NCBI GenBank assembly: GCA_035947015.1
Contig: DASZKL010000277.1
Span: 1 to 34,855, forward strand
DNA: 34,855 bases
Reading direction: 5' to 3'
Source: Rubrobacteraceae bacterium
GTDB lineage: Bacteria; Actinomycetota; Rubrobacteria; Rubrobacterales; Rubrobacteraceae
The notes under the pieces were generated by a model. It was not told where the DNA came from, ran no database searches, and saw nothing but the letters and a program-made list of their open reading frames with translations. Shown in pieces: positions 8,189 to 31,257 of this stretch (position 1 is the first letter of the stretch; each line of letters opens with the position of its first letter). Both the position numbers and the translations under genes were made by a program.

Positions 8189-10245
<2,057 letters not shown>

Positions 10246-10249
<4 letters not shown>

Positions 10250-11514
10250 GGTCGGTGACCGATCCCAACATCGGTAAGAAGGAGCTTAAGGGGGGCCTGA
10301 GGGTCTTATCCGAGCCTCTCGAAGAGGCTACGAGCGTCTCTTTGGGGGTCTGGATCCGGGCCGGCAGCCGCGACGAGGCAGACCAGGTTGCGGGCATCTC
10401 CCACCTGATGGAGCACATGCTCTTCAAGGGAACCCCCGAAATGGACGCTCTGGGCGTGGCGCAGGCTTTCGAGGCGATCGGTGCCCAGGAGAACGCTGCG
10501 ACCGGCGAAGAATACACAGTTCTCTACGCCCGATTCCTGCCCGAGCACCTGGGACGGGCCCTCGACATCATGAGCGATATGGTGCTTCGCCCAACCCTCG
10601 CCGACCTCGAGCGCGAGCGTGAGGTGATCGTCGAGGAGATAAGGATGTACGAGGATCGCCCCGACCAGATGGCCGACGAGTACCTCTCGTCCCTGATCTT
10701 CCACGGCGACTCCCTGGGACGCCCGATCATCGGCTCCGCCGAGACCGTTCGCGGAGTGGGCTACGAAACCCTGAGAACTTTTCACGAGAGCACCTATACA
10801 GCCCCGAACGTCTTCGTGGTAGCGGCTGGCAAGCTCGAGCGGGCGGAGCTCGAGCGGATGGTCGAGGAGAAGTTCTCGGATCTACCCCAGGGCGAACAGT
10901 TCGTTCGGGACGCAAGCCCAGAGCCCCCCGAAAGTCGCTTCTTCTACAAGCACAAGGAGACCGAGCAGTACCACGTCTCCCTTGGTTCCCTGGGCATCCC
11001 GGCCAAGAGCGAAGATCGCTACGCGATGGCGGCTCTGAACAACGTGCTCGGCGGCGGGATGAGCAGCCGGCTCTTCCAGGAGGTGCGGGAGAAACGCGGG
11101 CTCGCCTACGCGGTGTACTCCTACCACCAGGGCTACTCGGACGCCGGTGCGATCAAGACCTACGTCGGGTCCACAACCGGCAACGTCGAAGAGGCAGTGA
11201 AGGTTATCGCAGAGCAGCTGCATAAAGTTCAGGAGGAGAGGGTCAGCGAGGAGGAGTTGGACCGCACGAAGCAACAGCTCAAGAGCTCGACGCTTCTCGC
11301 CCTCGAGAGCACCGCGGCGCGGATGAACCGCATCGGAAGAAGCATCATAACGGGGACGGAGCTCCTGACCACAGAGGAGATCGCCGCCCGCATCGAGGCC
11401 GTCAGTACGGATGACATACAGCGCCTTGCCAGAGACCACCTGAACCTCGACCACATGTACCTCTCCGCCGTAGGTCCTAAGGAGGTCGACCTCGGAAGGC
11501 ACTTGAGTAGTTAG
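10246..11514 (+). CDS. M16-family (pitrilysin/insulinase-like) zinc peptidase
   Basis: HxxEH zinc motif in ..GISHLMEHMLFKGT.. TTG start overlaps the pnp stop (TTGA). pnp followed by an M16 peptidase is typical actinobacterial synteny. Confidence 0.88.
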
Positions 11515-13305: not shown

Positions 13306-15576
13306 GTGGTGGCTAACCGCAAGCGCGCGCCTAGTAGAAAGCCGCGGAAGAAGGGCTATAGCAGCAGGGGGCCCCGCAGATGGGGCGGGCTTCTATTGCG
13401 GGCACGGGACCGCGCCGGGGAGATAGTGACCCGGGAAGTGGTAGGGGTCGTGCTGCTCGTCGCTGGTGTGTTCTTCAGCGCCGCGTTTCTGAGCGGAAGT
13501 GGGGCGTTTCTGGGAGAGGCGGGCCTCGTTGCGGTGACGCATCTGCTGGGCATAGCCGGTCTCTCTCTAGCTCCGCTCGCCGCGGTCGCTGGCCTACTGC
13601 TCCTTCTGGGGCGCCTGCCTGGCCGCCGAGCACTAGGGGCCGGGCTACTGCTGGTGGCGGGCGCGACGACGCTCACGTCTGCGCTGCCGCGGGAGTTGCG
13701 CTTCTCCAGCGAGTACTACGCAGAGGCCGGGGGCCTTCTCGGGAGCGGTGTCTACGGCGCGGTCCACTGGGCAGGGGGCGCGATCGGGGCGGCGCTTGTA
13801 CTCAGCCTGCTCTACGTTGTAGGTCTCTCTTTGCTCACCGGCGTCAGCCCCGTGTCCGCCTTCGTCGCGGTTAAAGGTTGGGGTGAGGCGCTTCTGGCAT
13901 GGTTGCGTGAGAGACGCAGTTCGGGGAAGAGGCCCGCCGGTGGCGGGGGAGATCGGGGCGAGAAGCGCCGGAGCGAGAAGCGTGGTAGCGAGAAGGCTGG
14001 GGTGCGCGACCTGCACGCGGAGATCGCGGAGCCCCGCGGCGGGGACGGGTTCGCGACTGAGGAGCTCGAGGTGGTGCTGCCGGTGCGCCGGGATGCGGTC
14101 CCGTTCGCCGGGGGGAATGAAGAGATACCTGGGGAGTATGTCCCGCCTTCTCCCTCCGTTTTGAGCTTGGGTCGTGGGGACCCTGAGCACGACGCCGAGG
14201 AGACCAGCCGCAGGCTCACGAAGGCGCTATCGGACCTCGGGGTCGAGGCGCAGGTGGTCAGGGCGGTCGTCGGGCCGCGGGTGACCCGCTACGAGCTTCG
14301 CCTAGGGAGCGGGGTCAAGGTGGGCAAGGTGCGTAACCTCCAGCAGGACATAGCCTACGCTCTGGCTGCGACCGAGGTGCGGATTCTCGCTCCCATCCCG
14401 GGCAAGAGCGCCGTCGGCGTGGAGGTGCCCAACACTAGACCGGCGAAGGTCACCCTTGGCGACGTCTTCCAGGAATATCCTGAGGGCAACGACTGGACGC
14501 TGCCTGTGGGTCTGGGGAAGGACATATCCGGCCGGGCGGTCTTCTTCGACCTCGCCGATATGCCACACCTGCTCGTCGCAGGGACCACAGGCAGCGGCAA
14601 GAGCGTCTTGCTCAACTCACTTCTCACCTCGTTGCTTCTGACTACCGACCCCCGCCAGGTCAAGATGGTGCTCGTAGACCCCAAGAGGGTCGAGCTCACC
14701 CACTTCGCGCGCATCCCGCACCTCATCACCCCGGTGGTCACCGACGTCAAGAAGGCGGCGAACGCGCTCACGTGGGCTGTCTCCGAGATGGAGCGGCGCT
14801 ACGAGGTGCTTGAGAGGACGGGGGCCCGGTCGCTAGAAGGCTACAATGCCAGGAGCGAGACTAACATGCCCTACGTCGTCATCGTCATAGACGAGCTCGC
14901 AGATTTGATGATGGCTGCGGCTGCCAAAGTCGAGGATTCCGTTATCAGGATCGCCCAGAAGGCCAGGGCGGTTGGCCTCCACCTCGTCGTCGCGACCCAG
15001 CGACCCAGCGTGGACGTCATAACCGGCATGATCAAGGCCAACGTCCCTAGCCGCATAGCGTTCGCGGTCTCGAGCCAGGTGGACTCGCGTGTGATCCTGG
15101 ACTCCCCGGGCGCCGAGTCCCTGCTCGGGATGGGCGATATGCTCTTCAAGCCGGTCTCTGCCGCGCGGGCCTCGCGCGTGCAGGGCGCCTTTATCTCCGA
15201 GGAGGAGGTGGAGCGGGTGGTCTCGGCGACGGTCGAGGCGGGCAAGGGGCGTGTAGAGGCTAGCTACGTCGAGGAGGTGACGGAGCCGAAGAACCACCCC
15301 AAAGAGACCGAGGAGCCCGATGATGAACTCCTTCCTGAGGCGGCGAGCTTCGTCGTCGCCACCCAGCAGGCTTCGGTGAGCGCCGTACAGCGGCGTTTCC
15401 GGGTCGGATACTCCAGGGCGGGTAGGATCATCGACGCCCTAGAGCGCAAGGGCGTTGTCGGCCCGTATGAGGGGTCCAAGAGCCGGGCGGTGGTGGCGAC
15501 GGAGATGGAGGTAGAGGCTATCTTCGGCGCGAGCGGCGATGGCTCCGCGACGGAGGATACAGGGCAAGACTGGTAG
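13306..15576 (+). CDS. ftsK: DNA translocase FtsK/SpoIIIE
   Basis: N-terminal transmembrane segments, Arg/Glu-rich linker, motor domain with Walker A GTTGSGKS and Walker B VVIVIDELADL, and gamma winged-helix (..ASVSAVQRRFRVGYSRAGRIIDALERKGVVGP..). Confidence 0.95.
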   Translation: MVANRKRAPSRKPRKKGYSSRGPRRWGGLLLRARDRAGEIVTREVVGVVLLVAGVFFSAAFLSGSGAFLGEAGLVAVTHLLGIAGLSLAPLAAVAGLLLLLGRLPGRRALGAGLLLVAGATTLTSALPRELRFSSEYYAEAGGLLGSGVYGAVHWAGGAIGAALVLSLLYVVGLSLLTGVSPVSAFVAVKGWGEALLAWLRERRSSGKRPAGGGGDRGEKRRSEKRGSEKAGVRDLHAEIAEPRGGDGFATEELEVVLPVRRDAVPFAGGNEEIPGEYVPPSPSVLSLGRGDPEHDAEETSRRLTKALSDLGVEAQVVRAVVGPRVTRYELRLGSGVKVGKVRNLQQDIAYALAATEVRILAPIPGKSAVGVEVPNTRPAKVTLGDVFQEYPEGNDWTLPVGLGKDISGRAVFFDLADMPHLLVAGTTGSGKSVLLNSLLTSLLLTTDPRQVKMVLVDPKRVELTHFARIPHLITPVVTDVKKAANALTWAVSEMERRYEVLERTGARSLEGYNARSETNMPYVVIVIDELADLMMAAAAKVEDSVIRIAQKARAVGLHLVVATQRPSVDVITGMIKANVPSRIAFAVSSQVDSRVILDSPGAESLLGMGDMLFKPVSAARASRVQGAFISEEEVERVVSATVEAGKGRVEASYVEEVTEPKNHPKETEEPDDELLPEAASFVVATQQASVSAVQRRFRVGYSRAGRIIDALERKGVVGPYEGSKSRAVVATEMEVEAIFGASGDGSATEDTGQDW

Positions 15577-17661: not shown

Positions 17662-18282
17662 ATGCCCGAGATAACGGGCGTGCGGGAGCGCCGGGGCAAG
17701 GCGCGTATATTCGTCGACGGCGAGTACTGGGCTGAGATAGACGCAGGGGTAGCGGTGGAGCGCGGCCTTCGCGAGGGGGCTGCGCTCAGTCGCGAGGAAC
17801 TCGACGAGGCACGGATAGCGGGTGAGAGGGCGCTCGCCATGAGCCGCGCGCTCGACTTCTTGGGGTACCGTGCCAGGTCCGAGAAGGAGGTCCGCGACAG
17901 GCTTCGGCGCTACCGCTACGGCGAGGAGACTGCCGAAGGCGTGATCGGTCGCCTCAAGGAGCTTGGTTACCTCGACGATGAGGACTTCGCCCGTCTTGTT
18001 GTGCGCGAGAAGGCGCGCAGGTATGGCCCGAGGCGGGTCTCGGCCGAGCTGCGCAGGAGCGGTGTGGACGCCGAGATCGTGCGCGAGGTGGTAGATGAGG
18101 AGTTCGCCGACCGCTCCGAGCTAGAGGAGGCTCGATCTGTCGCCGCACAGCGGTATAATAGGGGAGGATCCTACGCCGAAGCGCGCAGGGTCTACGGATT
18201 CCTGGTGCGCCGGGGGTACTCGGTTGAGGTGTGCGCCGAGATAGCACGCGAGTACCGAGAGGCTTCAGGGGCCGAAGAATAG
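17662..18282 (+). CDS. recX: Recombination regulator RecX
   Basis: Immediately downstream of recA. Helical-repeat sequence typical of RecX (..ALDFLGYRARSEKEVRDRLRR.., ..VIGRLKELGYLDDEDFAR..). Confidence 0.88.
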   Translation: MPEITGVRERRGKARIFVDGEYWAEIDAGVAVERGLREGAALSREELDEARIAGERALAMSRALDFLGYRARSEKEVRDRLRRYRYGEETAEGVIGRLKELGYLDDEDFARLVVREKARRYGPRRVSAELRRSGVDAEIVREVVDEEFADRSELEEARSVAAQRYNRGGSYAEARRVYGFLVRRGYSVEVCAEIAREYREASGAEE

Positions 18283-18335
18283 ACAAGAGAGCTTGATACC
18301 GGCCCGCTGCGTTTGGGCCCGTTGGAGGAAAACTC

Positions 18336-19880
18336 GTGAATGTTCTGTTGCTGGTCCTGGACCTGGCCGTAGGGCTCGCCGTCGGCACGGTCTTGGGCTT
18401 TCTGCTTTGTAGGTCGCGACTGGGGACCCGTCAAGCCCAGGCGCGCGCGGACGCGCGCACTATCATCGAGGATGCCAACCGCGCCGCAGAGACGACGCGC
18501 CGCGAGGCTGAGCTTGAGGCTAAGGAGGCAGCGTTACGCATTAAGGATGAGGCCGAGGCCGAGGCGCGAGCCCGTCGCGCGGAGATCACCCGCATCGAGG
18601 AACGCCTCGACAACCGCGACACCGCCCTCGACAGTCGCGAGGAAGAACTCGATGAACGCCGCCGGCGGCTCTCGGAAACCGAGGAGACGCTGCGGCGCAA
18701 AGAAGATGAGCTGAAGTCCATTGAGGCGGAGCACCTGAGGGCCTTGGAGGAGGTCTCGGGCCTCACCAGGGACGAGGCAGAGTCGAGGCTCTTCGCGGGG
18801 CTCGAGGTGGAGTTAGAGGACCAGCTCGGACGCCTCGTGCGCGACCGCACGATGGAGGCCGAGGAGAGGGCGGACTCGGAGGCGCGCCGCATCGTCTCCA
18901 CCACGATGGAGCGGATCGCCTCGGACCTCACCTCCGAATCGACGGTGAAGGCGATCGCGCTCCCCTCCGACGACATGAAGGGCCGCATAATAGGGCGGGA
19001 GGGGAGAAACATCCGCGCGTTCGAGGCCGCAACCGGCGTCGACGTGATCATAGACGACACCCCAGAGACTGTTGTCATCTCATGCTTCGACCCCGTAAGG
19101 CGCGAAGTGGCGCGCGTGGCGATGGAGCAGCTCGTGCAGGACGGCAGGATCCACCCCGGCCGCATAGAGCAGATCGTCTCAAAGGCGAAGAAGGACGTCG
19201 AGAAGGAGATGAAAGCGGCGGGACGCCAGGCACTCTACGACGCCAAGATCTCCGGCGGCATGCACGGGGACCTCCTGCGGCTCCTCGGGGCGCTGAAGTA
19301 CCGCACCTCCTACGGCCAGAACGTGCTCTCCCACTCGGTCGAGGTCGCCAACCTCTGCGGCATGATGGCCCAGGAGCTCGGAGCCAACGTCAAGGTCGCC
19401 CGCCGCGCGGCGTTGCTTCACGACGTTGGCAAGGCCATAGACCACGAGGTCGAGGGAACGCACGCCTTGATCGGCGGCCGCTTCGCCAAGAAGAGCGGGG
19501 AATCCGACGACGTGGTCCGTGCCATAAGCGCCCACCACCACGAGATCGAGATGGAGACCGTCGAGGACGTGCTCGTCGCCACCGCCGACGCCGTCTCGGC
19601 ATCCCGACCCGGCGCCAGGCGCGAGACTACCGAGATCTACCTCGAAAGGTTGCGCTCTCTCGAGGATATCGCCCTCGGCCACCGCGGCGTAGACAAGGCA
19701 TACGCCATCCAGGCCGGTCGGGAGATTCGGGTCATGGTCCAGCCCTCCGAGGTCGACGACCGCATCGCGGCCAAGCTCGCCTACGACATCTCCAAGCAGA
19801 TAGAGAGCGACCTCGAGTACCCCGGCCAGATCAAGGTAACCGTCATCCGTGAGAGCCGCGTGAGCGAGGTTGCCAGGTAA
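18336..19880 (+). CDS. rny: Ribonuclease Y
   Basis: N-terminal TM helix, Glu/Arg-rich coiled coil, KH domain (..GRIIGREGRNIRAFEAATGVDVIIDD..), HD domain (..AALLHDVGKA..). GGAGGA lies 6 nt before the GTG. Confidence 0.95.
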   Translation: MNVLLLVLDLAVGLAVGTVLGFLLCRSRLGTRQAQARADARTIIEDANRAAETTRREAELEAKEAALRIKDEAEAEARARRAEITRIEERLDNRDTALDSREEELDERRRRLSETEETLRRKEDELKSIEAEHLRALEEVSGLTRDEAESRLFAGLEVELEDQLGRLVRDRTMEAEERADSEARRIVSTTMERIASDLTSESTVKAIALPSDDMKGRIIGREGRNIRAFEAATGVDVIIDDTPETVVISCFDPVRREVARVAMEQLVQDGRIHPGRIEQIVSKAKKDVEKEMKAAGRQALYDAKISGGMHGDLLRLLGALKYRTSYGQNVLSHSVEVANLCGMMAQELGANVKVARRAALLHDVGKAIDHEVEGTHALIGGRFAKKSGESDDVVRAISAHHHEIEMETVEDVLVATADAVSASRPGARRETTEIYLERLRSLEDIALGHRGVDKAYAIQAGREIRVMVQPSEVDDRIAAKLAYDISKQIESDLEYPGQIKVTVIRESRVSEVAR

Positions 19881-23009: not shown

Positions 23010-24250
23010 GAGAAGAGAGAGCAATTCTGGTGGGGGCCGGGGGGGCGCGCCACATGGCCGAGCTTGGGAGGCTGGCCACCACGCTTGGCATGGAGGTCGC
23101 GGGTGTCCTGGAGCAGGGCCGCATGGACGGGACCGGCTATCTGGGTCGCGGCAAGCGCGATGAGCTCCGCGCCCTCGTGGAGAGGCTCGGGGCACAGTTC
23201 GTGGTCGCAGACGACGAGCTCACGGCTTCGCAAGCGAGGGTGCTAGAAGGGTCTGCAGGGGCTGCGGTTGTGGACAGGACGGAGTTGATCATCCGCATAT
23301 TCGAGGCGCACGCCAGGGACGCCGCCAGCCGCCTCGAAGTGGAGCTTGCGGACCTCGAGTATCGACTGCCAAGGGTGAAGGGGAGAAGCCCGGAGTTGAG
23401 CCGCCTGGGGGGTGGTGGGGTCACGACCAGGGGTCCCGGTGAGCAGCAACTCGAGTACGACCGGCGCGCGATCCGCAGGCGGATGGAGACCATAAACCGC
23501 AAGCTCCAGGAGGAGAAGGCCGCGCGGGGGGTACGCGGGGCGAGGCTCAAGAAGGAAGGTCCGCCCACCGTCGCTCTTGTAGGCTACACGAACGCGGGCA
23601 AGACGACGATCCTGAACGCGTTGAGCGGGGCGGGTAGGTCCACGAAGGACAAGCTCTTCGAGACACTCGAGACAACGACGCGGCTTGTCGAGGGGAAGAG
23701 TGGCGACGGGCGCAACGGTGCGCGACCGGACTTCGTGGTGACGGACACGGTGGGATTCATTCGGAAGCTCCCCACACAGCTCGTCCACTCCTTCGCCTCG
23801 ACGCTAGAGGCGACGCACGACGCGGACGTGAAGGTACTTTGCGCCGACGCCTCGAGCGCAGAGCTCGAGGAGGAGATAGGGACTGTAGCACGGACCCTCT
23901 CCGAGACTCTCGGCAACGGATCGGATCCGGGGTCCACGATACTCTGCCTCAACAAAATGGACCTCGTCTCCGAGGAGCGTGAGGGGGAGCTCAGGCGGGA
24001 CTACCCCGGGGCTGTGATGATAAGCGCCCTCCTGGATGGTTGCGATGCGCTGCTGGAGGAGATCTACCGCACCATAGCCTCCGGGCGAGAGAGGATGGAG
24101 GTCCTGATCCCTCACGCCGAGTACGCGGCGGCGAGCCGCCTCTACGGCACGGCCGAGATCCACGCCCAGGAAGATAGGGAAGCCGGCCTGTGGATGGACG
24201 TGAGCCTGCCGCGCTCGGCCTCGGCGAAATACGCCCCATACAGAGTTTGA
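23006..24250 (+). CDS. hflX: GTPase HflX
   Basis: HflX N-domain plus G-motifs GYTNAGKTTILNAL, TDTVGF, NKMD. The ATG overlaps the miaA stop (ATGA). Confidence 0.93.
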   Translation: MREERAILVGAGGARHMAELGRLATTLGMEVAGVLEQGRMDGTGYLGRGKRDELRALVERLGAQFVVADDELTASQARVLEGSAGAAVVDRTELIIRIFEAHARDAASRLEVELADLEYRLPRVKGRSPELSRLGGGGVTTRGPGEQQLEYDRRAIRRRMETINRKLQEEKAARGVRGARLKKEGPPTVALVGYTNAGKTTILNALSGAGRSTKDKLFETLETTTRLVEGKSGDGRNGARPDFVVTDTVGFIRKLPTQLVHSFASTLEATHDADVKVLCADASSAELEEEIGTVARTLSETLGNGSDPGSTILCLNKMDLVSEEREGELRRDYPGAVMISALLDGCDALLEEIYRTIASGRERMEVLIPHAEYAAASRLYGTAEIHAQEDREAGLWMDVSLPRSASAKYAPYRV

Positions 24251-25020
24251 CGGAGGAGATAATCAGGCTATACCCGCTACCTGCGCAGGCGCTCGCAGCG
24301 GGAGGCATATACGAAGACCTGGAACTTCCGCCTCCGGGCCAAAGAGACCCCTCGAGACCTTATGTGATCATGAACATGGTCATCACCTTGGACGGCAGGA
24401 CCGCCGTAGAGGGCAGGTCCTCCCGAATCGGGAGCTCTACCGACCGCCAGACGATGCGAACGCTCCGCTCCAAAGCGGACGCCGTGATGATCGGGGCCGG
24501 CACCCTACGCGCCGAGAAGCTCTCCCTCGGGCTCGACGATCCCGCCGGGCGGCATCCCCTGGCCCTTATAGTCACGAACTCGGGGAATATCCCGCTCGAG
24601 AGCAACCTCATCGTCCCAGAAGGGCAGGAGATTATGGTGATAACTAGGGAGGGCGCCACCTTCAGCTATGGCGATCAGCGCGTGCTCTGCGTCTCCGCAG
24701 ACACTGACGGCAACCTCGACCTCCGAGAGGCGCTGGAGGTTCTCAAATCCCAGATGACCGTAGGGCTCCTCCTCGTCGAGGGCGGCCCGAGGCTGAGCTA
24801 TTCCCTTATCTCCCAGAACCTCGCCGACGAACTCTTTCTGACCCTCGCCCCGAAGCTGCTAGGCGGGCCCGTCGCCGAGAGCCGGGCTATCCTCAACGGC
24901 CCGTACCTGCCGCCGCAAGACGTCGGCCTCCTCTCTGCACACCTCGCCGGCGAGGAGCTCTTTCTCAGATACGACCTGCGCCCACCCCACGCGCATGGCA
25001 ACAGAGCGAAAAACACATAA
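24247..25020 (+). CDS. RibD_C / dihydrofolate-reductase-like family reductase
   Basis: ..YVIMNMVITLDGRTAVEGRSSRIGSSTDRQTMRTLRSKADAVMIGAGTLRAEK.., ..LLLVEGGPRLSYSLI.. TTG 24247 overlaps the hflX stop (TTGA). The ORF-track start at 24190 lies inside hflX. Confidence 0.8.
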   Translation: MTEEIIRLYPLPAQALAAGGIYEDLELPPPGQRDPSRPYVIMNMVITLDGRTAVEGRSSRIGSSTDRQTMRTLRSKADAVMIGAGTLRAEKLSLGLDDPAGRHPLALIVTNSGNIPLESNLIVPEGQEIMVITREGATFSYGDQRVLCVSADTDGNLDLREALEVLKSQMTVGLLLVEGGPRLSYSLISQNLADELFLTLAPKLLGGPVAESRAILNGPYLPPQDVGLLSAHLAGEELFLRYDLRPPHAHGNRAKNT

Positions 25021-25093
25021 TACTCATCAAGGGCAACATATGGAGCCACGCACTCACTGCACCACAACCCCAGCTCAGTAGGCAAAGAACAGG

Positions 25094-25125
25094 AAAAAGC
25101 TCTCCTGCCGCAAGAGCGGCAGAGC
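25094..25125 (-). terminator. Rho-independent terminator read on the minus strand
   Basis: Minus strand reads GCTCTGCCGC-tctt-GCGGCAGgAGAGC, followed by TTTTT. The core 7-bp GC stem is CTGCCGC/GCGGCAG (plus-strand coordinates 25105-25122). There is no T-tract in the plus-strand direction. Confidence 0.55.
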
Positions 25126-25402
25126 AGCCTAGATTGTCCTGTGCCAGGCGTGGGACCATTGCGTGGGGCATTGTTTGCCTCAGCAGTCCTGCAACCGGGT
25201 AAATCGTTTCCTCCTGCTCAAGCGCACACCCAGACGCAGCGCAGTAACTAGATTTCCGCCATGGTGAGCTCCAGTGCAGACACTCTCCCTGGCGAGGAGA
25301 CTACCGTACCTGCTAGGAAACGGCGGGATCTAGGTGCAAGATCGTAGATCTCATCGACCAGTTCTGTGAGCGGAGTCGGTAGATCACGTGCACACAGTAT
25401 GA

Positions 25403-25430
25403 ACTTCCGAGAATTCCCGTTATGCGAAGT
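25403..25430 (+). other. Candidate dif (Xer chromosome-dimer-resolution) site
   Basis: ACTTCCGAGAA-TTCCCG-TTATGCGAAGT has the 11-6-11 dif architecture. Against B. subtilis dif as I recall it (ACTTCCTAGAA-TATATA-TTATGTAAACT), the left arm matches 10/11 and the right arm 8/11. The right arm is also 8/11 to the E. coli XerD arm TTATGTTAAAT. The central hexamer is atypically GC-rich. Confidence 0.5.
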
Positions 25431-25743
25431 TCATCGGAATCGCACAGCCCTTCACGCACTATATTTCTGAAATAGGGCTCCTAAGATCACGCTAGGCCCG
25501 CAATGTGCATGTCCAGAGCCTCAGCACTAGTACTTGTAAGAGTAGTGTCCTTACAACCCAACGAAGTTCTCCCTCGAAGACCGGTTGCCTTCGGGCCAGC
25601 CACGCTATTCTCCCTACTCCCAAACCTTCCCCGATCTGCTACGATACCTGTGCGAGAGCTGATCTGCGCTGGCCTAAGTGTGTGCCTACTTCTTAGCTCT
25701 GCGTATGCGTTAGTTGCCACCGTAATGTGCGAAGGAGAACGAA

Positions 25744-26697
25744 CTACAGGGGGAGCGTATTATATTGATATGCTCTGGTGGCGAGCTCTTCGGCGCGCCT
25801 GATGTAGCGCATTGTGGTCTTTGGGTCGGAGTGGCCAAGGAACTGCTGGATGACGAGCAGAGGTGCTTCGTTCATAGCCATGTTGGTGCCGACGGTGTGC
25901 CGGATCGAGTGCGGGGAGATGGCCTTGGTTATGCCGGCGGCGCGGACGTACTTCTTGACTATGTTCTGTACGGAGCGGGTTGTTAGGGGTTTGTCCTTAC
26001 CGACCCTGGAGACAAAAAGGGGCTTGCGGGCGTCGAGGTGGGAGTTGAAGCTGCGACCCGAGAGGAAGACGAACTTCTGGACGAGTCGCCAGAGCTCCGG
26101 CGAGAGCGGGACGTTCCGGATCTTGTCCCCCTTCCCACGGATGCGCAGAAGGACCTGGTCGTTGCCCGCCTCCTGGAAGTCCCCGACACGGATGTCTACA
26201 ACCTCGGCTTCGCGCAGTCCGCCCCCTGCCGTAACGGCCAGGAGCACGTAGTCGCGGTAGTTGGCGGCGCGCGCCGCGCTCAGCATGCGCGAGAGCTCGT
26301 CCTCCGTGAGGACGTTGTAGGAAGAGTCCTGGCGCACTCTAGGGCTCTTGGCGAAGAACCGCAGGGCTTCGGGGTTCACGGCGGTGGCGCCGGCCATGTA
26401 GGTGAAGATCAAGAACCGCCGCAACACAGCGAGCTTCTTCGCCGCCGTAGCCGCCGAGTACGTCTTTATCAAGTGCTCCCGATAGAGAGAGATGTCCTCC
26501 GCGGTGATCCCCCCCAACCCCTTCCCTATCTTCTTCCCTATATAAGTGACGAACATGCGAAGCTCCGTATTATAGGTTTTTATAGTCTGAGGGCTGGTGA
26601 GGGTGCGCAAGTAGACGGCGATGAGGCGTTCGGCATCGACGGGGTAAGCAGGGTGTGTCTCTCCCAGGGGTTCGGGGAGGTTATTGGGCTGGGTCAT
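25744..26697 (-). CDS. Tyrosine site-specific recombinase (XerC/XerD-like / phage-integrase family)
   Basis: N-terminal SAM-like core-binding region (..TSPQTIKTYNTELRMFVTYI..). Catalytic residues are all present: R in GGLREAEV, K in RGKGDKIRNVPL, HxxR in HSIRHT, H/Y in LGHSDPKTTMRYI. GC is lower than neighbours (34/60 in 25801-25860). ATG 26697 is preferred; GTG 26748 is possible. Both overlap the apt 3' end. Confidence 0.88.
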   Translation of the reverse strand: MTQPNNLPEPLGETHPAYPVDAERLIAVYLRTLTSPQTIKTYNTELRMFVTYIGKKIGKGLGGITAEDISLYREHLIKTYSAATAAKKLAVLRRFLIFTYMAGATAVNPEALRFFAKSPRVRQDSSYNVLTEDELSRMLSAARAANYRDYVLLAVTAGGGLREAEVVDIRVGDFQEAGNDQVLLRIRGKGDKIRNVPLSPELWRLVQKFVFLSGRSFNSHLDARKPLFVSRVGKDKPLTTRSVQNIVKKYVRAAGITKAISPHSIRHTVGTNMAMNEAPLLVIQQFLGHSDPKTTMRYIRRAEELATRAYQYNTLPL

Positions 26698-27232
26698 CGT
26701 AGGTGATGAGCGATATGACTTCGTATGGAGCGAGACGGGCGCGACCACTCAGGTAGGAGAGCTCTATGAGGAAGGCGACGCCGGCAACGACGCCGCCGGC
26801 GTTCTCGACGAGATCGCACATGGCCCTTGCGGTTCCGCCGGTAGCGAGCAGGTCGTCAGCGACGAGGACGCGGGTACCGCGCGGGATGGCATCGACGTGG
26901 GCTTCCAGGGAGTCGGTTCCGTACTCGAGCTCGTAGGTGGCAGAGATGGTCTCGCGGGGGAGCTTGTTAGGCTTGCGGGCGAGGATCAGGCCCTTGCGGG
27001 CGCGGTAAGCCAGAGCGGTGCCGAGCACGAAGCCCCGTGCCTCGGCGGAGAGGATACGGTCATAGTCGAGGCCGTAGGTGGCGAGGGCGAGCGCGTCAAC
27101 GGCGGCGTGAAGGGCTTCCCCGTTCTCTATAAGGGGGGTGATGTCCTTGAAGGAGATACCGGGGCTTGGGAAGTCGGGGACGGTGCGGATGTTGCGCTCG
27201 AGGTCGCGGATAATCTCGCGGGTGCGATCCAC
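26681..27232 (-). CDS. apt: Adenine phosphoribosyltransferase
   Basis: ..IRTVPDFPSPGISFKDITPL.. and PRPP-binding motif VLVADDLLATGGTA. GTG start. Confidence 0.93.
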   Translation of the reverse strand: MDRTREIIRDLERNIRTVPDFPSPGISFKDITPLIENGEALHAAVDALALATYGLDYDRILSAEARGFVLGTALAYRARKGLILARKPNKLPRETISATYELEYGTDSLEAHVDAIPRGTRVLVADDLLATGGTARAMCDLVENAGGVVAGVAFLIELSYLSGRARLAPYEVISLITYDDPAQ

Positions 27233-28749: not shown

Positions 28750-31257
28750 TTAATCTTGGCCGTCTATGAGGGACCGGACGAGCTCGACGTACTCGCCCAT
28801 GAGCTCTCTGGGGCGCACGCCGTCGTCTCCATCGGGCTCCGCGTAGACGTAGAACAGCGGGTTATCTGGGTCAGGGAGCATCAGGATCCAGCCACCCTCG
28901 ACGTTCAGCTTGACGCCGTCGGTCAGGATGGCGTCCGGGTCGCCGCCGAACCTCTCGGCCAGGCCCCGCATCACGCGGCCCTTTGCCGCCCACGGGCACT
29001 CGAGCCGCTCGCGTGCGACGTTGCCGAAGCTCGCTCCGAACTTCTCGCGCGTACGCGAGAGGGGCTCGTCCCGGAAGGCTTCGAGGGCGCGGGCCAGGGT
29101 CATGAAGCAGTCGGGGGCAGGGAGGAAGGTCGGGAAGATGTAACGCCCATCGCCGAGGCCGGCAAGGTCGGCGCTAGCTCCCGCGGCCTTTATGGCGACG
29201 TTTCCAAGGCCGGTGCGGCTCGTCTCGACGGTGCCACCGCCCTCCTCGACCAACTCGGCGTAACCGTGGCTGAGGTTGACCGGGAGCACAGCCTTTTGCG
29301 GATGCAGCCGATCCATCAGACATGCGAGCATCACGTCCGGGGGGACGAACTCGCCGCGATCATCCACGAACTGAACATCCTCTCCCTTGGGCCCAACGAC
29401 GCATCCGAAGGCCGCCTCTACCGTAGGTACTATGCGCCTGACCCTCTCGAGGCTCTCCTCCAGGTTCAACCTCGCACCGTCGCCGGCGACGTTCGCGTTC
29501 GCAAAGCCCTCCATGACGACGGCGTTAATGCCGAGCCTGGAGAATACGCGGCTCGCCACCAAGCTAGCCACGCCGCCGGAGAAGTCCACGACCACAGTGG
29601 CTCCGGAGACCTTCTCGCGGTTCGCGGCGCGCTCGAGGCGCTCCACGTACTGCTCGACGGCACGGCCGGGGAAGATCAGCTCCCCCACGTCCCCTGCGTA
29701 GGCGCGCCTGTACTCCTCGCGCACGAAGTACTTCTCGACACCGCGCTGGTCGGATTCGGTCATGGGGGTCGCGTCGGCGGCGAAGAACAGTATCTCCACG
29801 TCGTCAGGGTCCTCGCCCGCGCGCACGTGGGCCCCGGCGGAGGACTTGCCCGCAAGCACGTCGTGTCGCACCACGCCCGCGTGAGCCGCCCTTAGGTCGC
29901 GGACGTTCACGCCGGTACCCAGAATGGCTGCGGTCATGGCTCTCTTGGCGACCAAGGCTGAGGAGGATGAGTCGCGCCCCAGTGTGACCACCGCGCCCGG
30001 ATCCAGCGTGGTACCGAAGGAGGATGCCAAGCGAATGACGAACTCGGGTGTAAGGTCCACGTTGAACTTCCCGGTCACGATGCCGCCCTTGAAGACGGTG
30101 CGAAGTCCCATAGTCTCGTAGATCAGGGACTGCGTGATGTTCGCCCCGCTCTCTATGGTCTTGTGCGGGTAGACCTTGACCTCCGGGGAGATCGTCGCCC
30201 CCTCGCCGACTATGACGTCGTCGCCCAAAGAGCTGCGCTCCAGGATGCGCGCGCGGGCCTGGACGTAGGAGTTGCGCCCGACGAGGGTGTCGATGAGCTC
30301 CGCACCCTCGCCGATGTAGGTACCCTCTGCGACGATGCTGCGCTCGAGGGTGGCCCCTGCCGAGACGACCACGTTGCTACCGATGACGGTGTAGGGGCTG
30401 ATCTTGGCCCCCTCGTATATCCGCACGTTGTCGCCGATGACGACGGGTCCTTCTAAGTCCTCGTCATCGACCTGCGCTCGCCTCCCGACGTAGATGTTCT
30501 CCCGAAGTCTCGTCCCCGGCGGCCTCACCCCCTGCACCCTCCCGTCAAGGACGTCGCGCTGGGCCGAGGCGTACTGCTCTAAGGTGCCAATGTCCTCCCA
30601 GTAGGCGTCCGTCACGAAGCCGTAGATGGGCCTGCCCATGTCCAGCAGCTTCGGGAAGAGATCCTTGGAGAAGTCGTACTCTCCCTCCTCGGGGTCTGGC
30701 ATCTCGTCCATCACGGAGGGCTCGAGCAAGTATATTCCGGTGTTGACGGTGTCGGAGAAGACCTGGCCCCAGGCCGGCTTCTCCAGAAAGCGCGAGATAC
30801 GCCCGTCCTCCTCGGTGATGACTATCCCGAAGTCCAACGGGTTCTCGACGCTCTTCAAGACCATCGTGGCCTCCGCGCCCATCTCCTCGTGGAAGCTCAC
30901 GACCCGCGAGAGGTCCGCGTCGGTTAGGGCGTCACCGCTGATAATCAAGAGACGCTCGCCATGGAGATCGAGCTGCTGCTCGGCCATCTTTACCGAGCCT
31001 GCAGTGCCGGCCGGGGCGTCCTCTATCGAGTAGCGCATGTTCACACCCCAGTCGGAGCCGTCGCCGAAGTAGTCCTGTATCTCATCCGGCATGAACTGCA
31101 GAGTCACGCCGATGTCGGTGAAGCCGTGGCGCGCGAGGAGGTTTACGATGTGCTCCATGCACGGCAGGTTGGCTATCCGTATCATGGGCTTGGGCTGGTT
31201 GCTTGTCAGCGGCCTCAGGCGGGTCCCCTGCCCGCCGGCCATGATGATCGCCTTCAT
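28750..31257 (-). CDS. Sugar-1-phosphate nucleotidyltransferase (GlmU/ManC-like, with left-handed beta-helix) fused to a PGM/PMM-like domain lacking catalytic motifs
   Basis: N-terminus MKAIIMAGGQGTRLRPLTSNQPKPM (intact NTP-transferase signature), followed by hexapeptide repeats. The C-terminal 450 aa or so align by eye to the four PGM/PMM domains, but TASHNP is RAGEDP, DGDADR is GPKGED, GEESGH is GDGRYI and RPSGTEP is LPDPDNP. Confidence 0.85.
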   Translation of the reverse strand: MKAIIMAGGQGTRLRPLTSNQPKPMIRIANLPCMEHIVNLLARHGFTDIGVTLQFMPDEIQDYFGDGSDWGVNMRYSIEDAPAGTAGSVKMAEQQLDLHGERLLIISGDALTDADLSRVVSFHEEMGAEATMVLKSVENPLDFGIVITEEDGRISRFLEKPAWGQVFSDTVNTGIYLLEPSVMDEMPDPEEGEYDFSKDLFPKLLDMGRPIYGFVTDAYWEDIGTLEQYASAQRDVLDGRVQGVRPPGTRLRENIYVGRRAQVDDEDLEGPVVIGDNVRIYEGAKISPYTVIGSNVVVSAGATLERSIVAEGTYIGEGAELIDTLVGRNSYVQARARILERSSLGDDVIVGEGATISPEVKVYPHKTIESGANITQSLIYETMGLRTVFKGGIVTGKFNVDLTPEFVIRLASSFGTTLDPGAVVTLGRDSSSSALVAKRAMTAAILGTGVNVRDLRAAHAGVVRHDVLAGKSSAGAHVRAGEDPDDVEILFFAADATPMTESDQRGVEKYFVREEYRRAYAGDVGELIFPGRAVEQYVERLERAANREKVSGATVVVDFSGGVASLVASRVFSRLGINAVVMEGFANANVAGDGARLNLEESLERVRRIVPTVEAAFGCVVGPKGEDVQFVDDRGEFVPPDVMLACLMDRLHPQKAVLPVNLSHGYAELVEEGGGTVETSRTGLGNVAIKAAGASADLAGLGDGRYIFPTFLPAPDCFMTLARALEAFRDEPLSRTREKFGASFGNVARERLECPWAAKGRVMRGLAERFGGDPDAILTDGVKLNVEGGWILMLPDPDNPLFYVYAEPDGDDGVRPRELMGEYVELVRSLIDGQD

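Follow-up and report, generated by a model that had tools for sequence, protein, structure and literature searches.

The window analysed here is a 34,855-nt stretch of DNA from a Rubrobacteraceae bacterium (contig DASZKL010000277.1), and we are concerned with a 28-bp putative dif site within it and with the adjacent gene, which encodes a Xer-like tyrosine recombinase. Matches to Pfam and NCBIfam families place an array of genes on the plus strand at 659-25020 and a second array on the minus strand from 25744 to the end of the window, and the two converge on an island that has no genes. The principal features of the locus are:

13306-15576, plus strand: ftsK, DNA translocase (Pfam FtsK_SpoIIIE 3.2e-60, FtsK_alpha, FtsK_gamma 1.5e-25, and a 4TM region)
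24190-25020, plus strand: RibD_C-type pyrimidine reductase (ribD_C), last gene of the plus array (Pfam RibD_C 6.9e-33)
25021-25743, no strand: island without genes and with lower guanine-cytosine (GC) content, between the converging arrays
25104-25123, minus strand: terminator-like hairpin followed by a T run (consensus scan only)
25403-25430, plus strand: putative dif site of 28 bp, ACTTCCGAGAA-TTCCCG-TTATGCGAAGT (conservation and dif matrix)
25403-25413, plus strand: left arm of dif, ACTTCCGAGAA, XerC-arm-like
25414-25419, plus strand: central hexamer of dif, TTCCCG, 6 bp
25420-25430, plus strand: right arm of dif, TTATGCGAAGT, XerD-arm-like, the arm nearest the recombinase
25744-26700, minus strand: Xer-like tyrosine recombinase of 318 aa (Pfam Phage_integrase 2.2e-33 and Phage_int_SAM_1)
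26681-27232, minus strand: apt, adenine phosphoribosyltransferase (NCBIfam apt equivalogs above cut-off)

The plus array comprises, in order, rimP, nusA, infB, rbfA, the gene of a DHH protein, truB, ribF, pnp, genes for an M16 peptidase and RNase J, ftsK, a rodZ-like gene, recA, recX, rny, miaB, miaA, hflX and the RibD_C reductase, ending at 25020. Read outward from the island, the minus array contains the recombinase gene (25744-26700), apt, ftsR, an FHA/Zn-ribbon gene, an NTP-transferase/phosphoglucomutase (PGM) fusion, pgsA, der, plsC, cmk and the 3′ end of aroA. Bases 1-658 contain only open reading frames (ORFs) without any family match. The recombinase gene is the last of the minus array; its likely start is the ATG at 26700, and it overlaps the apt stop codon by 20 nt. 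The ftsK gene is 9.8 kb away from the dif site. An initial annotation, made from the letters of the window, had described a switch of gene orientation at 25021-25743, a complete Xer-like recombinase and an ftsK gene about 10 kb away. The family matches agree with it on each point, placing plus-strand genes at 659-25020 and minus-strand genes from 25744, both domains in the recombinase, and a gamma domain in FtsK.

The island is 723 bp in length, and the next largest gap in the window is about half that size. Its GC content is 54.2% (56.0% to the left of dif and 52.7% to the right), compared with 64.5% for the window and 60.6-65.7% for the four genes flanking the island. The lower GC content had been noted in the initial annotation, but the figures given there (45-53% against 65-72%) overstated the contrast. 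The lack of coding signal, also noted there, is confirmed by the third-position GC, which is 0.46-0.59 for the ORFs of the island (up to 99 aa) and 0.77-0.81 for real genes. A small protein encoded in the island was rejected, since these ORFs have no third-position GC signal and are not conserved in relatives. A non-coding RNA was also rejected: a search of the island for transfer RNA (tRNA) and transfer-messenger RNA found none, and a search against Rfam gave no family at gathering or permissive thresholds, the four matches with E > 1 being chance. In the consensus scan the hairpin at 25104-25123 is the sole such site downstream of the recombinase operon, and it lies beyond dif. Apart from dif, the island appears to be non-functional terminus DNA of fast turnover, and relatives hold variable accessory genes in this position.

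We identify dif at 25403-25430 by three independent lines of evidence, i.e. it is the sole conserved non-coding element, it is the top match to a matrix of published sites, and it recurs on replicons that have no integrase. A dif site is made up of two 11-bp inverted arms and a 6-bp central region (PMC2958812), and the site has just this layout, with two imperfectly inverted 11-bp arms around a 6-bp centre. The palindrome extends outward to GA...TC, at 25401-25432. There is one copy in the window, even with three mismatches permitted, where shuffled sequences give an expectation of zero. The matrix was built from 31 in-register sites published by Kono et al. (29 from Actinobacteria and two from Acidobacteria), and was scored at every position of the window on both strands (69,656 positions). 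The plus strand at 25403-25430 ranks first of all of these, with a score of 10.4 against 3.7 for the runner-up; with a matrix of the arms only, it scores 18.8 and the next position 4.5. The inner motif TTATG / GA(G/T)AA of the published sites is also matched. The left arm is identical at 10 of 11 positions to the Bacillus subtilis dif arm ACTTCCTAGAA. The right arm TTATGCGAAGT is identical at nine of 11 positions to the Frankia alni dif arm TTATGTCAAGT (Kono et al., PMC3025954).

A first candidate for dif chosen by eye, 25010-25037 on the minus strand (GTTGCCCTTGATGAGTATTATGTGTTTT), was rejected, being a distant second in the matrix (3.7) and not conserved in relatives. It is located in the same island, overlaps the stop codon of ribD_C, and is inverted relative to dif. 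It may be a chance match or a decayed half-site.

Scanning species-representative genomes with the recombinase gave 43 loci (L001-L043) at 69-84% protein identity. All 43 belong to Rubrobacteraceae, among them Rubrobacter marinus (L033, a complete chromosome) and R. taiwanensis (L039), and therefore the window is a segment of a Rubrobacteraceae chromosome. A comparison of the locus in related genomes, as the initial annotation had proposed, finds the recombinase gene syntenic in every relative examined, and its adjacency to apt is kept in all Rubrobacteraceae loci. When the island with short flanks was compared with the 43 loci by blastn, the only segments that aligned were the end of the recombinase gene (its final ~50 nt) and the element at 25400-25432. 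The latter is 94-100% identical over 31-33 nt in about 25 loci, while the other intergenic DNA is unalignable. The exact arm pattern is present in 18 genome loci and variants with one to five mismatches in a further 12, giving 30 loci with one site each; no second dif site or stray half-site was found at any of them.

The order recombinase → dif ← ribD_C ← hflX ← miaA ← miaB ← rny ← recA is conserved, and is found in metagenome contigs also. Chromosomal sites with arms of the type found in the window always lie between the recombinase gene and ribD_C/hflX in a single orientation (22 genome loci and five metagenome contigs). On one side the distance from ribD_C to dif is 10-60 bp in most relatives. 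On the other, dif is 314 bp from the stop codon of the recombinase gene in the window, 65 bp in L032 and up to 3.6 kb in L005 (a range of 0.1-3.6 kb over the 30 genome loci), and ~14.6 kb in the metagenome contig L146. The recombinase gene is thus genetically linked to its presumed site, as is a feature of single-recombinase xer-dif modules. The DNA between the two in relatives encodes FemAB-like proteins, glycosyltransferases, UDP-sugar enzymes, and ABC and MFS proteins; no mobile-element genes were found in this variable DNA. Insertions of the type made by integrative mobile elements exploiting Xer recombination (IMEXs) were therefore rejected, there being neither a second site or half-site nor mobile-element genes. 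We note that many contigs of metagenome-assembled genomes (MAGs) stop 0-400 bp past the stop codon of the recombinase gene (L001, L008, L010, L018, L025, L035 and others), which suggests that differences between strains in the surroundings of dif regularly interrupt short-read assembly there. Both the variable spacing and the contig breaks fit a plastic terminus region.

The recombinase is complete and of the simple two-domain type, with a SAM-like N-terminal domain and a Phage_integrase domain. The catalytic R, K, H-x-x-R, H and Y all align with residues of Escherichia coli XerD, which we take to be R148, K172, H244, R247, H270 and Y279. The best NCBIfam model is XerA (NF040815) with a score of 150.6, still below the cut-off of 220. 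Scores for XerC (TIGR02224; 142.9, cut-off 335.15), XerD (TIGR02225; 139.3, cut-off 329.6), the actinobacterial-type XerC model NF002331 (73.4, cut-off 371) and XerS (76.4, cut-off 267) are likewise below threshold. The best matches among solved structures are XerD (1a0p, 3.8e-21) and the XerA of Pyrococcus abyssi (4a8e, 1.6e-20), with XerH (5jjv) giving a weak partial match in the catalytic domain only (E = 1.2e-6). By these scores the protein, called XerC/D-like in the initial annotation, falls outside the XerC, XerD, XerA and XerS families, and it is neither a canonical XerC nor a canonical XerD. In a single pairwise alignment, which is not structural, the RQ-type segment SQRAQQMT of XerD faces SRVGKDKPLT of the recombinase, and the GKDKP at the position of SQRAQQ resembles RKDK of P. 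abyssi XerA (motif classes from PMC2958812).

Of 1.84 billion representative proteins, 46 reach E ≤ 1e-30 against the recombinase. Outside the Rubrobacter cluster the closest full-length protein has 43% identity and the others at most 40%, and none of the nine nearest single-module outgroups tested reaches any Xer equivalog cut-off. PLSDB contains no close relative (≤30.5% identity). The 43%-identical outgroup (P0129, encoded at 5189-6169 of L198) adjoins HTH_17, DUF3987 and a second integrase, and this mobile-element setting hints at a possible origin for the Rubrobacter gene. Many distant homologues (P0148, P0150, P0154, P0167 and about 25 more) are proteins of 620-750 aa that have two tandem tyrosine-recombinase modules; P0148 is above both the XerC and the XerD equivalog cut-offs, which suggests that these may be fused XerC-XerD proteins.

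A search of the literature found no paper on a dif site or Xer protein of Rubrobacter. The genus is missing from the dif tables of Kono et al. (PMC3025954) and from the supplements of PMC8138268, and a preprint on the classification of tyrosine recombinases reports the Xer subgroup in all classes except a few, with Rubrobacteria among the exceptions (10.1101/542381). The locus thus provides a dif/Xer module for a lineage that had no previously described one.

The sites fall into two classes. Class A has the arms of the window, and class B has the pattern [AG]TTTCCGAGAA-N6-TTATCGGAAA[TC], found in R. marinus, R. taiwanensis, L013, L020, L028, L029 and L031. The two arms of a site are identical to each other at eight of 11 positions in class A and at 9-10 of 11 in class B, compared with 4-7 of 11 in the 31 published dif sites, which come from genomes where they were predicted on the basis of XerC/D. 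Near-identical arms have been described for the sites of the single recombinase XerA (Cortez et al., PMC2958812). In a tree of the recombinases the class A and class B genomes form separate clades, with L032, which has a variant class A site, branching alone. Four residues of the recombinase discriminate between the classes, including Q245/N246 in class A where class B has R/Y. This is consistent with co-divergence of recombinase and site as a cognate pair, in a pattern that reflects a single split of the tree. The site keeps the canonical architecture with unusually symmetric arms, while its recombinase lies below the XerC, XerD, XerA and XerS thresholds.

The initial annotation had drawn an analogy with single-recombinase systems. 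We favour this, because the arms are unusually symmetric and the protein is neither canonical XerC nor canonical XerD, and also because of the absence of Xer-subgroup recombinases from Rubrobacteria reported in the preprint (10.1101/542381). We hold it with reserve, as somewhat the better supposition, that one recombinase acts on both arms, so that the gene and site would be a self-contained xer-dif module.

The class A arms were also used to scan metagenomes, whereupon at least 120 contigs matched, and 80 of these were examined. Fifteen are chromosomal by their flanking genes, and about 20 more match variable chromosomal flanks and have the chromosomal hexamers TTCCCG or TCCCCG. A further 21 are small replicons (L109, L132, L095, L112, L123, L124, L128, L136, L150 and 12 more), circular and of ~5-6 kb, that encode a Prim-Pol/PriCT or DUF3854 Rep together with HTH_17, HTH_3 and DUF6788 proteins. 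Their site is placed with the HTH_17 gene just before it and the HTH_3 gene just after. L109 repeats with a period of 5,774 bp and 100% wrap-around identity, and L132 with a period of 4,954 bp and 94% identity; several others wrap around as well. Reading through the unit of L109, the Rep is the sole ORF above ~190 aa, so there is no room for a recombinase, and a tblastn search of the 21 small-replicon contigs with the recombinase found no match. These replicons thus carry a mimic of the host dif without a recombinase of their own, in the manner of plasmid Xer sites and IMEXs. The hexamer is TTACCG, which is also a chromosomal variant, in 19 of 24 small-replicon sites, and others among the 80 contigs keep the arms with different central hexamers. 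One of these is a phage-like contig of 10 kb (L125) with portal, major head and primase genes, whose arms, at 8404 when oriented, surround the hexamer CGCCGG. Scanning IMG/VR for both classes of dif gave no match, and the Prim-Pol Rep has no close relative in PLSDB (≤37% identity, in the N-terminus only).

Elements that are known to borrow the Xer system of their host include cer, psi, pdif modules, CTX-phi and LME-1, and the presence of the arms on replicons without an integrase may be taken as indirect functional support for the dif assignment. The replicons are known from metagenome contigs only, and their presumed host is deduced from the site that they carry. Two further contigs have a pair of sites. 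L137 has two direct sites (202 and 4851, oriented) bounding different DNA, and resembles a head-to-tail fusion, at dif, of two related DUF3854-Rep elements, which may be a co-integrate made by Xer. In L090 the direct sites at 1348 and 2902 have different central hexamers, and are 1.5 kb apart with no ORF between them.

The locus is likely to be at or very near the replication terminus. We base this on the position of the site in R. marinus, on the conserved convergence of the genes and on a local peak in GC skew. In the complete chromosome of R. marinus the site is at ~2,115,939 of 4,156,492 bp, i.e. 50.9%, and the chance of falling this close to the midpoint is about 2%. The cumulative GC skew of the window peaks at ~27.5 kb, 2 kb from the island, and on both sides G exceeds C on the strand that reads toward dif (+0.056 and +0.053). 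Since all the genes point toward dif, replication polarity is inseparable from transcription. The proposal in the initial annotation that a dif site lies beside a Xer-like recombinase at a terminus is supported by the 28-bp site, the gene convergence and the R. marinus position.

Polar octamers that might orient FtsK were rejected, as the words with the strongest skew are rich in AT, resemble promoter boxes and track gene orientation. The heptamer ATAATAC, often as CATAATAC or TATAATAC, has six copies in the window where 0.36 are expected (6715, 20448, 21197 and 25017 on the plus strand; 25757 and 26567 on the minus strand), and is also present in L013, L015, L021, L022, L033 and L039. Over 436 kb of the window and loci there are 152 copies on the gene-sense strand and two on the opposite strand, and for CATAATAC the numbers are 82 and zero. 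The copies occupy conserved positions within coding DNA. Two are inside the recombinase gene, each read as TAT AAT ACG (Tyr-Asn-Thr), and there is one at each edge of the island, both pointing toward dif. The heptamer looks like a -10-type promoter box retained against a GC-rich codon bias. In the minus array, the fusion gene is an ORF of 835 aa (28750-31257, minus strand) in which a sugar-nucleotidyltransferase with hexapeptide repeats is joined to a phosphoglucomutase/phosphomannomutase, and all related loci keep the fusion.

Taking the evidence together, we consider it highly probable that dimers of this Rubrobacteraceae chromosome are resolved at the locus, and that the 28-bp dif would be the substrate of the recombinase encoded 314 bp away. 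The analysis establishes the site itself with its conservation, position, orientation and match to dif, the family placement of the recombinase, and the presence of the arms on plasmid-like and phage-like contigs, whereas catalysis at the site, dependence on FtsK, the use of a single recombinase and the exact position of the terminus are inferred. The mechanism proposed is modelled on the systems of E. coli, Lactococcus lactis, Helicobacter pylori and Legionella pneumophila. After replication, FtsK (13306-15576, with its gamma domain) at the closing septum would pump DNA toward dif, and would presumably activate and position the recombination there, a role taken from E. coli and L. lactis. Protomers of the recombinase would occupy both arms of two sister dif sites, and strands would be exchanged in pairs where the central hexamer meets the arms, via a Holliday junction, so that the chromosome dimer is converted into monomers. 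The order of cleavage could be set by the slight asymmetry of the arms. With the gene kept beside its site, recombinase and dif would be co-inherited as a module.

A number of observations weigh against this interpretation or against parts of it. No dif was found in L002, L003, L009, L011, L012, L017 and L036, with at least 0.85 kb of downstream sequence in each, although for the L009 type a metagenome contig locates dif ~14.6 kb from the recombinase. The antipodal position in R. marinus presumes that the record starts at the origin. The local GC skew is weak and confounded with gene orientation, and most relatives show approximately zero skew over 10 kb on the recombinase side. No small replicon was seen integrated beside a chromosomal dif, the 43 loci having no Rep or HTH homologues, second site or half-site. 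The asymmetry of the class A arms at three of 11 positions is strictly conserved, which a two-protein system would also explain, and L003 has a second paralogue of the recombinase, 80% identical in nucleotide sequence, 7 kb downstream. These last two points would agree with a locus at which the neighbouring gene encodes one divergent XerC/XerD-like partner, with a second Xer paralogue encoded elsewhere binding the other arm. Two recombinases are the bacterial norm (PMC5357621), and the automatic name of the family in IMG is 'integrase/recombinase XerD'. However, the XerC and XerD scores are equally poor (143 and 139 bits against cut-offs of ~330), and the protein is without a XerD-type segment where XerD contacts FtsK-gamma. 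Moreover the class B arms are outside the range for dif sites of XerC/D genomes, and the preprint found no Xer-subgroup proteins in Rubrobacteria (10.1101/542381). We therefore regard a two-recombinase locus as rather unlikely.

Conserved half-sites around a variable spacer are typical of operators too, and on the small replicons the site is flanked by HTH_17 and HTH_3 genes, so the palindrome might be the operator of a dimeric DNA-binding regulator such as an HTH protein, the recombinase being a coincidental neighbour. Yet the chromosomal site is between converging gene ends, where there is no promoter needing regulation, and no other position of the window scores as high on the matrix of published dif sites, whose inner motif it shares. 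The palindrome and the recombinase are always found linked and have diverged together, and the palindrome is at mid-chromosome in R. marinus, making an operator very improbable. We give almost no weight to the suggestion that gene and site have nothing to do with chromosome segregation and belong instead to an invertible switch or to an inserted mobile element, as its integrase and attachment site. The setting of P0129 among HTH_17, DUF3987 and a second integrase, and the variable DNA that adjoins the recombinase gene, would be in keeping with this. Against it, there is no tRNA in the island and no second site or half-site in any locus, and the variable DNA contains FemAB-like, glycosyltransferase, ABC and MFS genes instead of mobile-element genes. 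The possibility of a prophage integrase, raised in the initial annotation, is answered by the overlap of the recombinase gene with apt and its presence in all relatives.

The two copies of the recombinase gene in L003, a Rubrobacteraceae MAG, are at 10001-10957 and 17891-18787, and bracket genes for thioredoxin/MauE, DUF6065, a glycosyltransferase and UDP-galactopyranose mutase. The second copy is split by tblastn into two adjoining pieces, possibly by a frameshift or sequencing error, and no dif was found within 10 kb of sequence at this locus. The second copy could be a transferred module, a paralogue or the product of a chimeric assembly.

A wider account can be put forward tentatively, although we think it somewhat less probable than not in its entirety. 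Rubrobacteraceae would lack XerC/D, and use one XerA-like recombinase encoded beside a near-palindromic dif. A mobile element may have been the source from which this module was captured, as the nearest outgroup is element-borne. Integrase-less Prim-Pol plasmids and at least one phage would exploit the enzyme through dif mimics, with private hexamers deciding which of these replicons recombine with one another or with the chromosome.

The locus provides a concrete and testable candidate for dimer resolution in a deep-branching, radiation-tolerant class of actinobacteria that had been listed as having no Xer-subgroup recombinases (10.1101/542381), and whose genus Rubrobacter is absent from the dif catalogue (PMC3025954). 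If a single recombinase is indeed used, this would be another independent lineage in which XerC/D has been replaced by a linked xer-dif module. The canonical 11+6+11 site would then be a useful system in which to examine how a single protein imposes an order of strand exchange when the arms differ slightly, and whether recombination is still under the control of FtsK-gamma. In practice the 28-mer would mark the terminus in fragmented Rubrobacter MAGs, and would tie otherwise orphan small plasmids and a phage to the Rubrobacter host group.

Comparison can be made with several known Xer systems. In the XerS/difSL system of streptococci and lactococci (PMC1914069, PMC2965235) a lineage-specific recombinase gene likewise lies beside a dif-like site at the terminus, and FtsK is present. 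However, difSL is 31 bp in length with an 11-bp central region, where the Rubrobacter site is 11+6+11; the Rubrobacter protein scores just 76 bits on the XerS model (cut-off 267), and gene and site are separated by anything between 0.1 and ~15 kb. The XerH/difH system of Campylobacterota (PMC2731167, PMC3325230, PMC5241119) has a single Xer, a hexamer flanked by two inverted repeats of high conservation, and a gene that is usually linked to the site, but the protein match is weak and partial (5jjv, E = 1.2e-6) and the arm sequences differ. The archaeal XerA/dif system (PMC2958812) provides the best NCBIfam model (150.6 bits) and has the K-D-K segment at the position of the RQ-type segment of XerD. 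The near-palindromic arms are as in the dif of Thermococcales, and in Sulfolobus the site is close to xerA. Yet the score is under the cut-off of 220, and Rubrobacter is a bacterium with a gamma-domain FtsK whereas archaea have no FtsK. XerA functions without a partner in vitro.

The XerL/dif system of Legionellales (PMC9765430) is a case in which a lineage thought to have no Xer had a distinct single-recombinase system. Its dif was revealed by a mobile element carrying a dif mimic, and plasmids are linked to the system. XerL is proteobacterial, and in Rubrobacter no element was found in an integrated state. The small integrase-less replicons that carry the host arms, some with the chromosomal hexamer TTACCG and others with private hexamers, have a parallel in plasmid Xer sites and IMEXs (cer, psi, pdif modules, CTX-phi and LME-1), but no integrated copy of the Rubrobacter type flanked by two sites was found in the 43 chromosomal loci. 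Lastly, the canonical XerCD/dif system of Actinomycetota such as Frankia and Mycobacterium (PMC3025954) shares the 28-bp 11+6+11 architecture, the nine of 11 identities between TTATGCGAAGT and TTATGTCAAGT, and the CCGA-AA core of the left arm. It differs in that the Rubrobacter recombinase fails the XerC and XerD models, that the arms match each other at 8-10 of 11 positions instead of 4-7, and that the gene is beside its site, not elsewhere in the genome.

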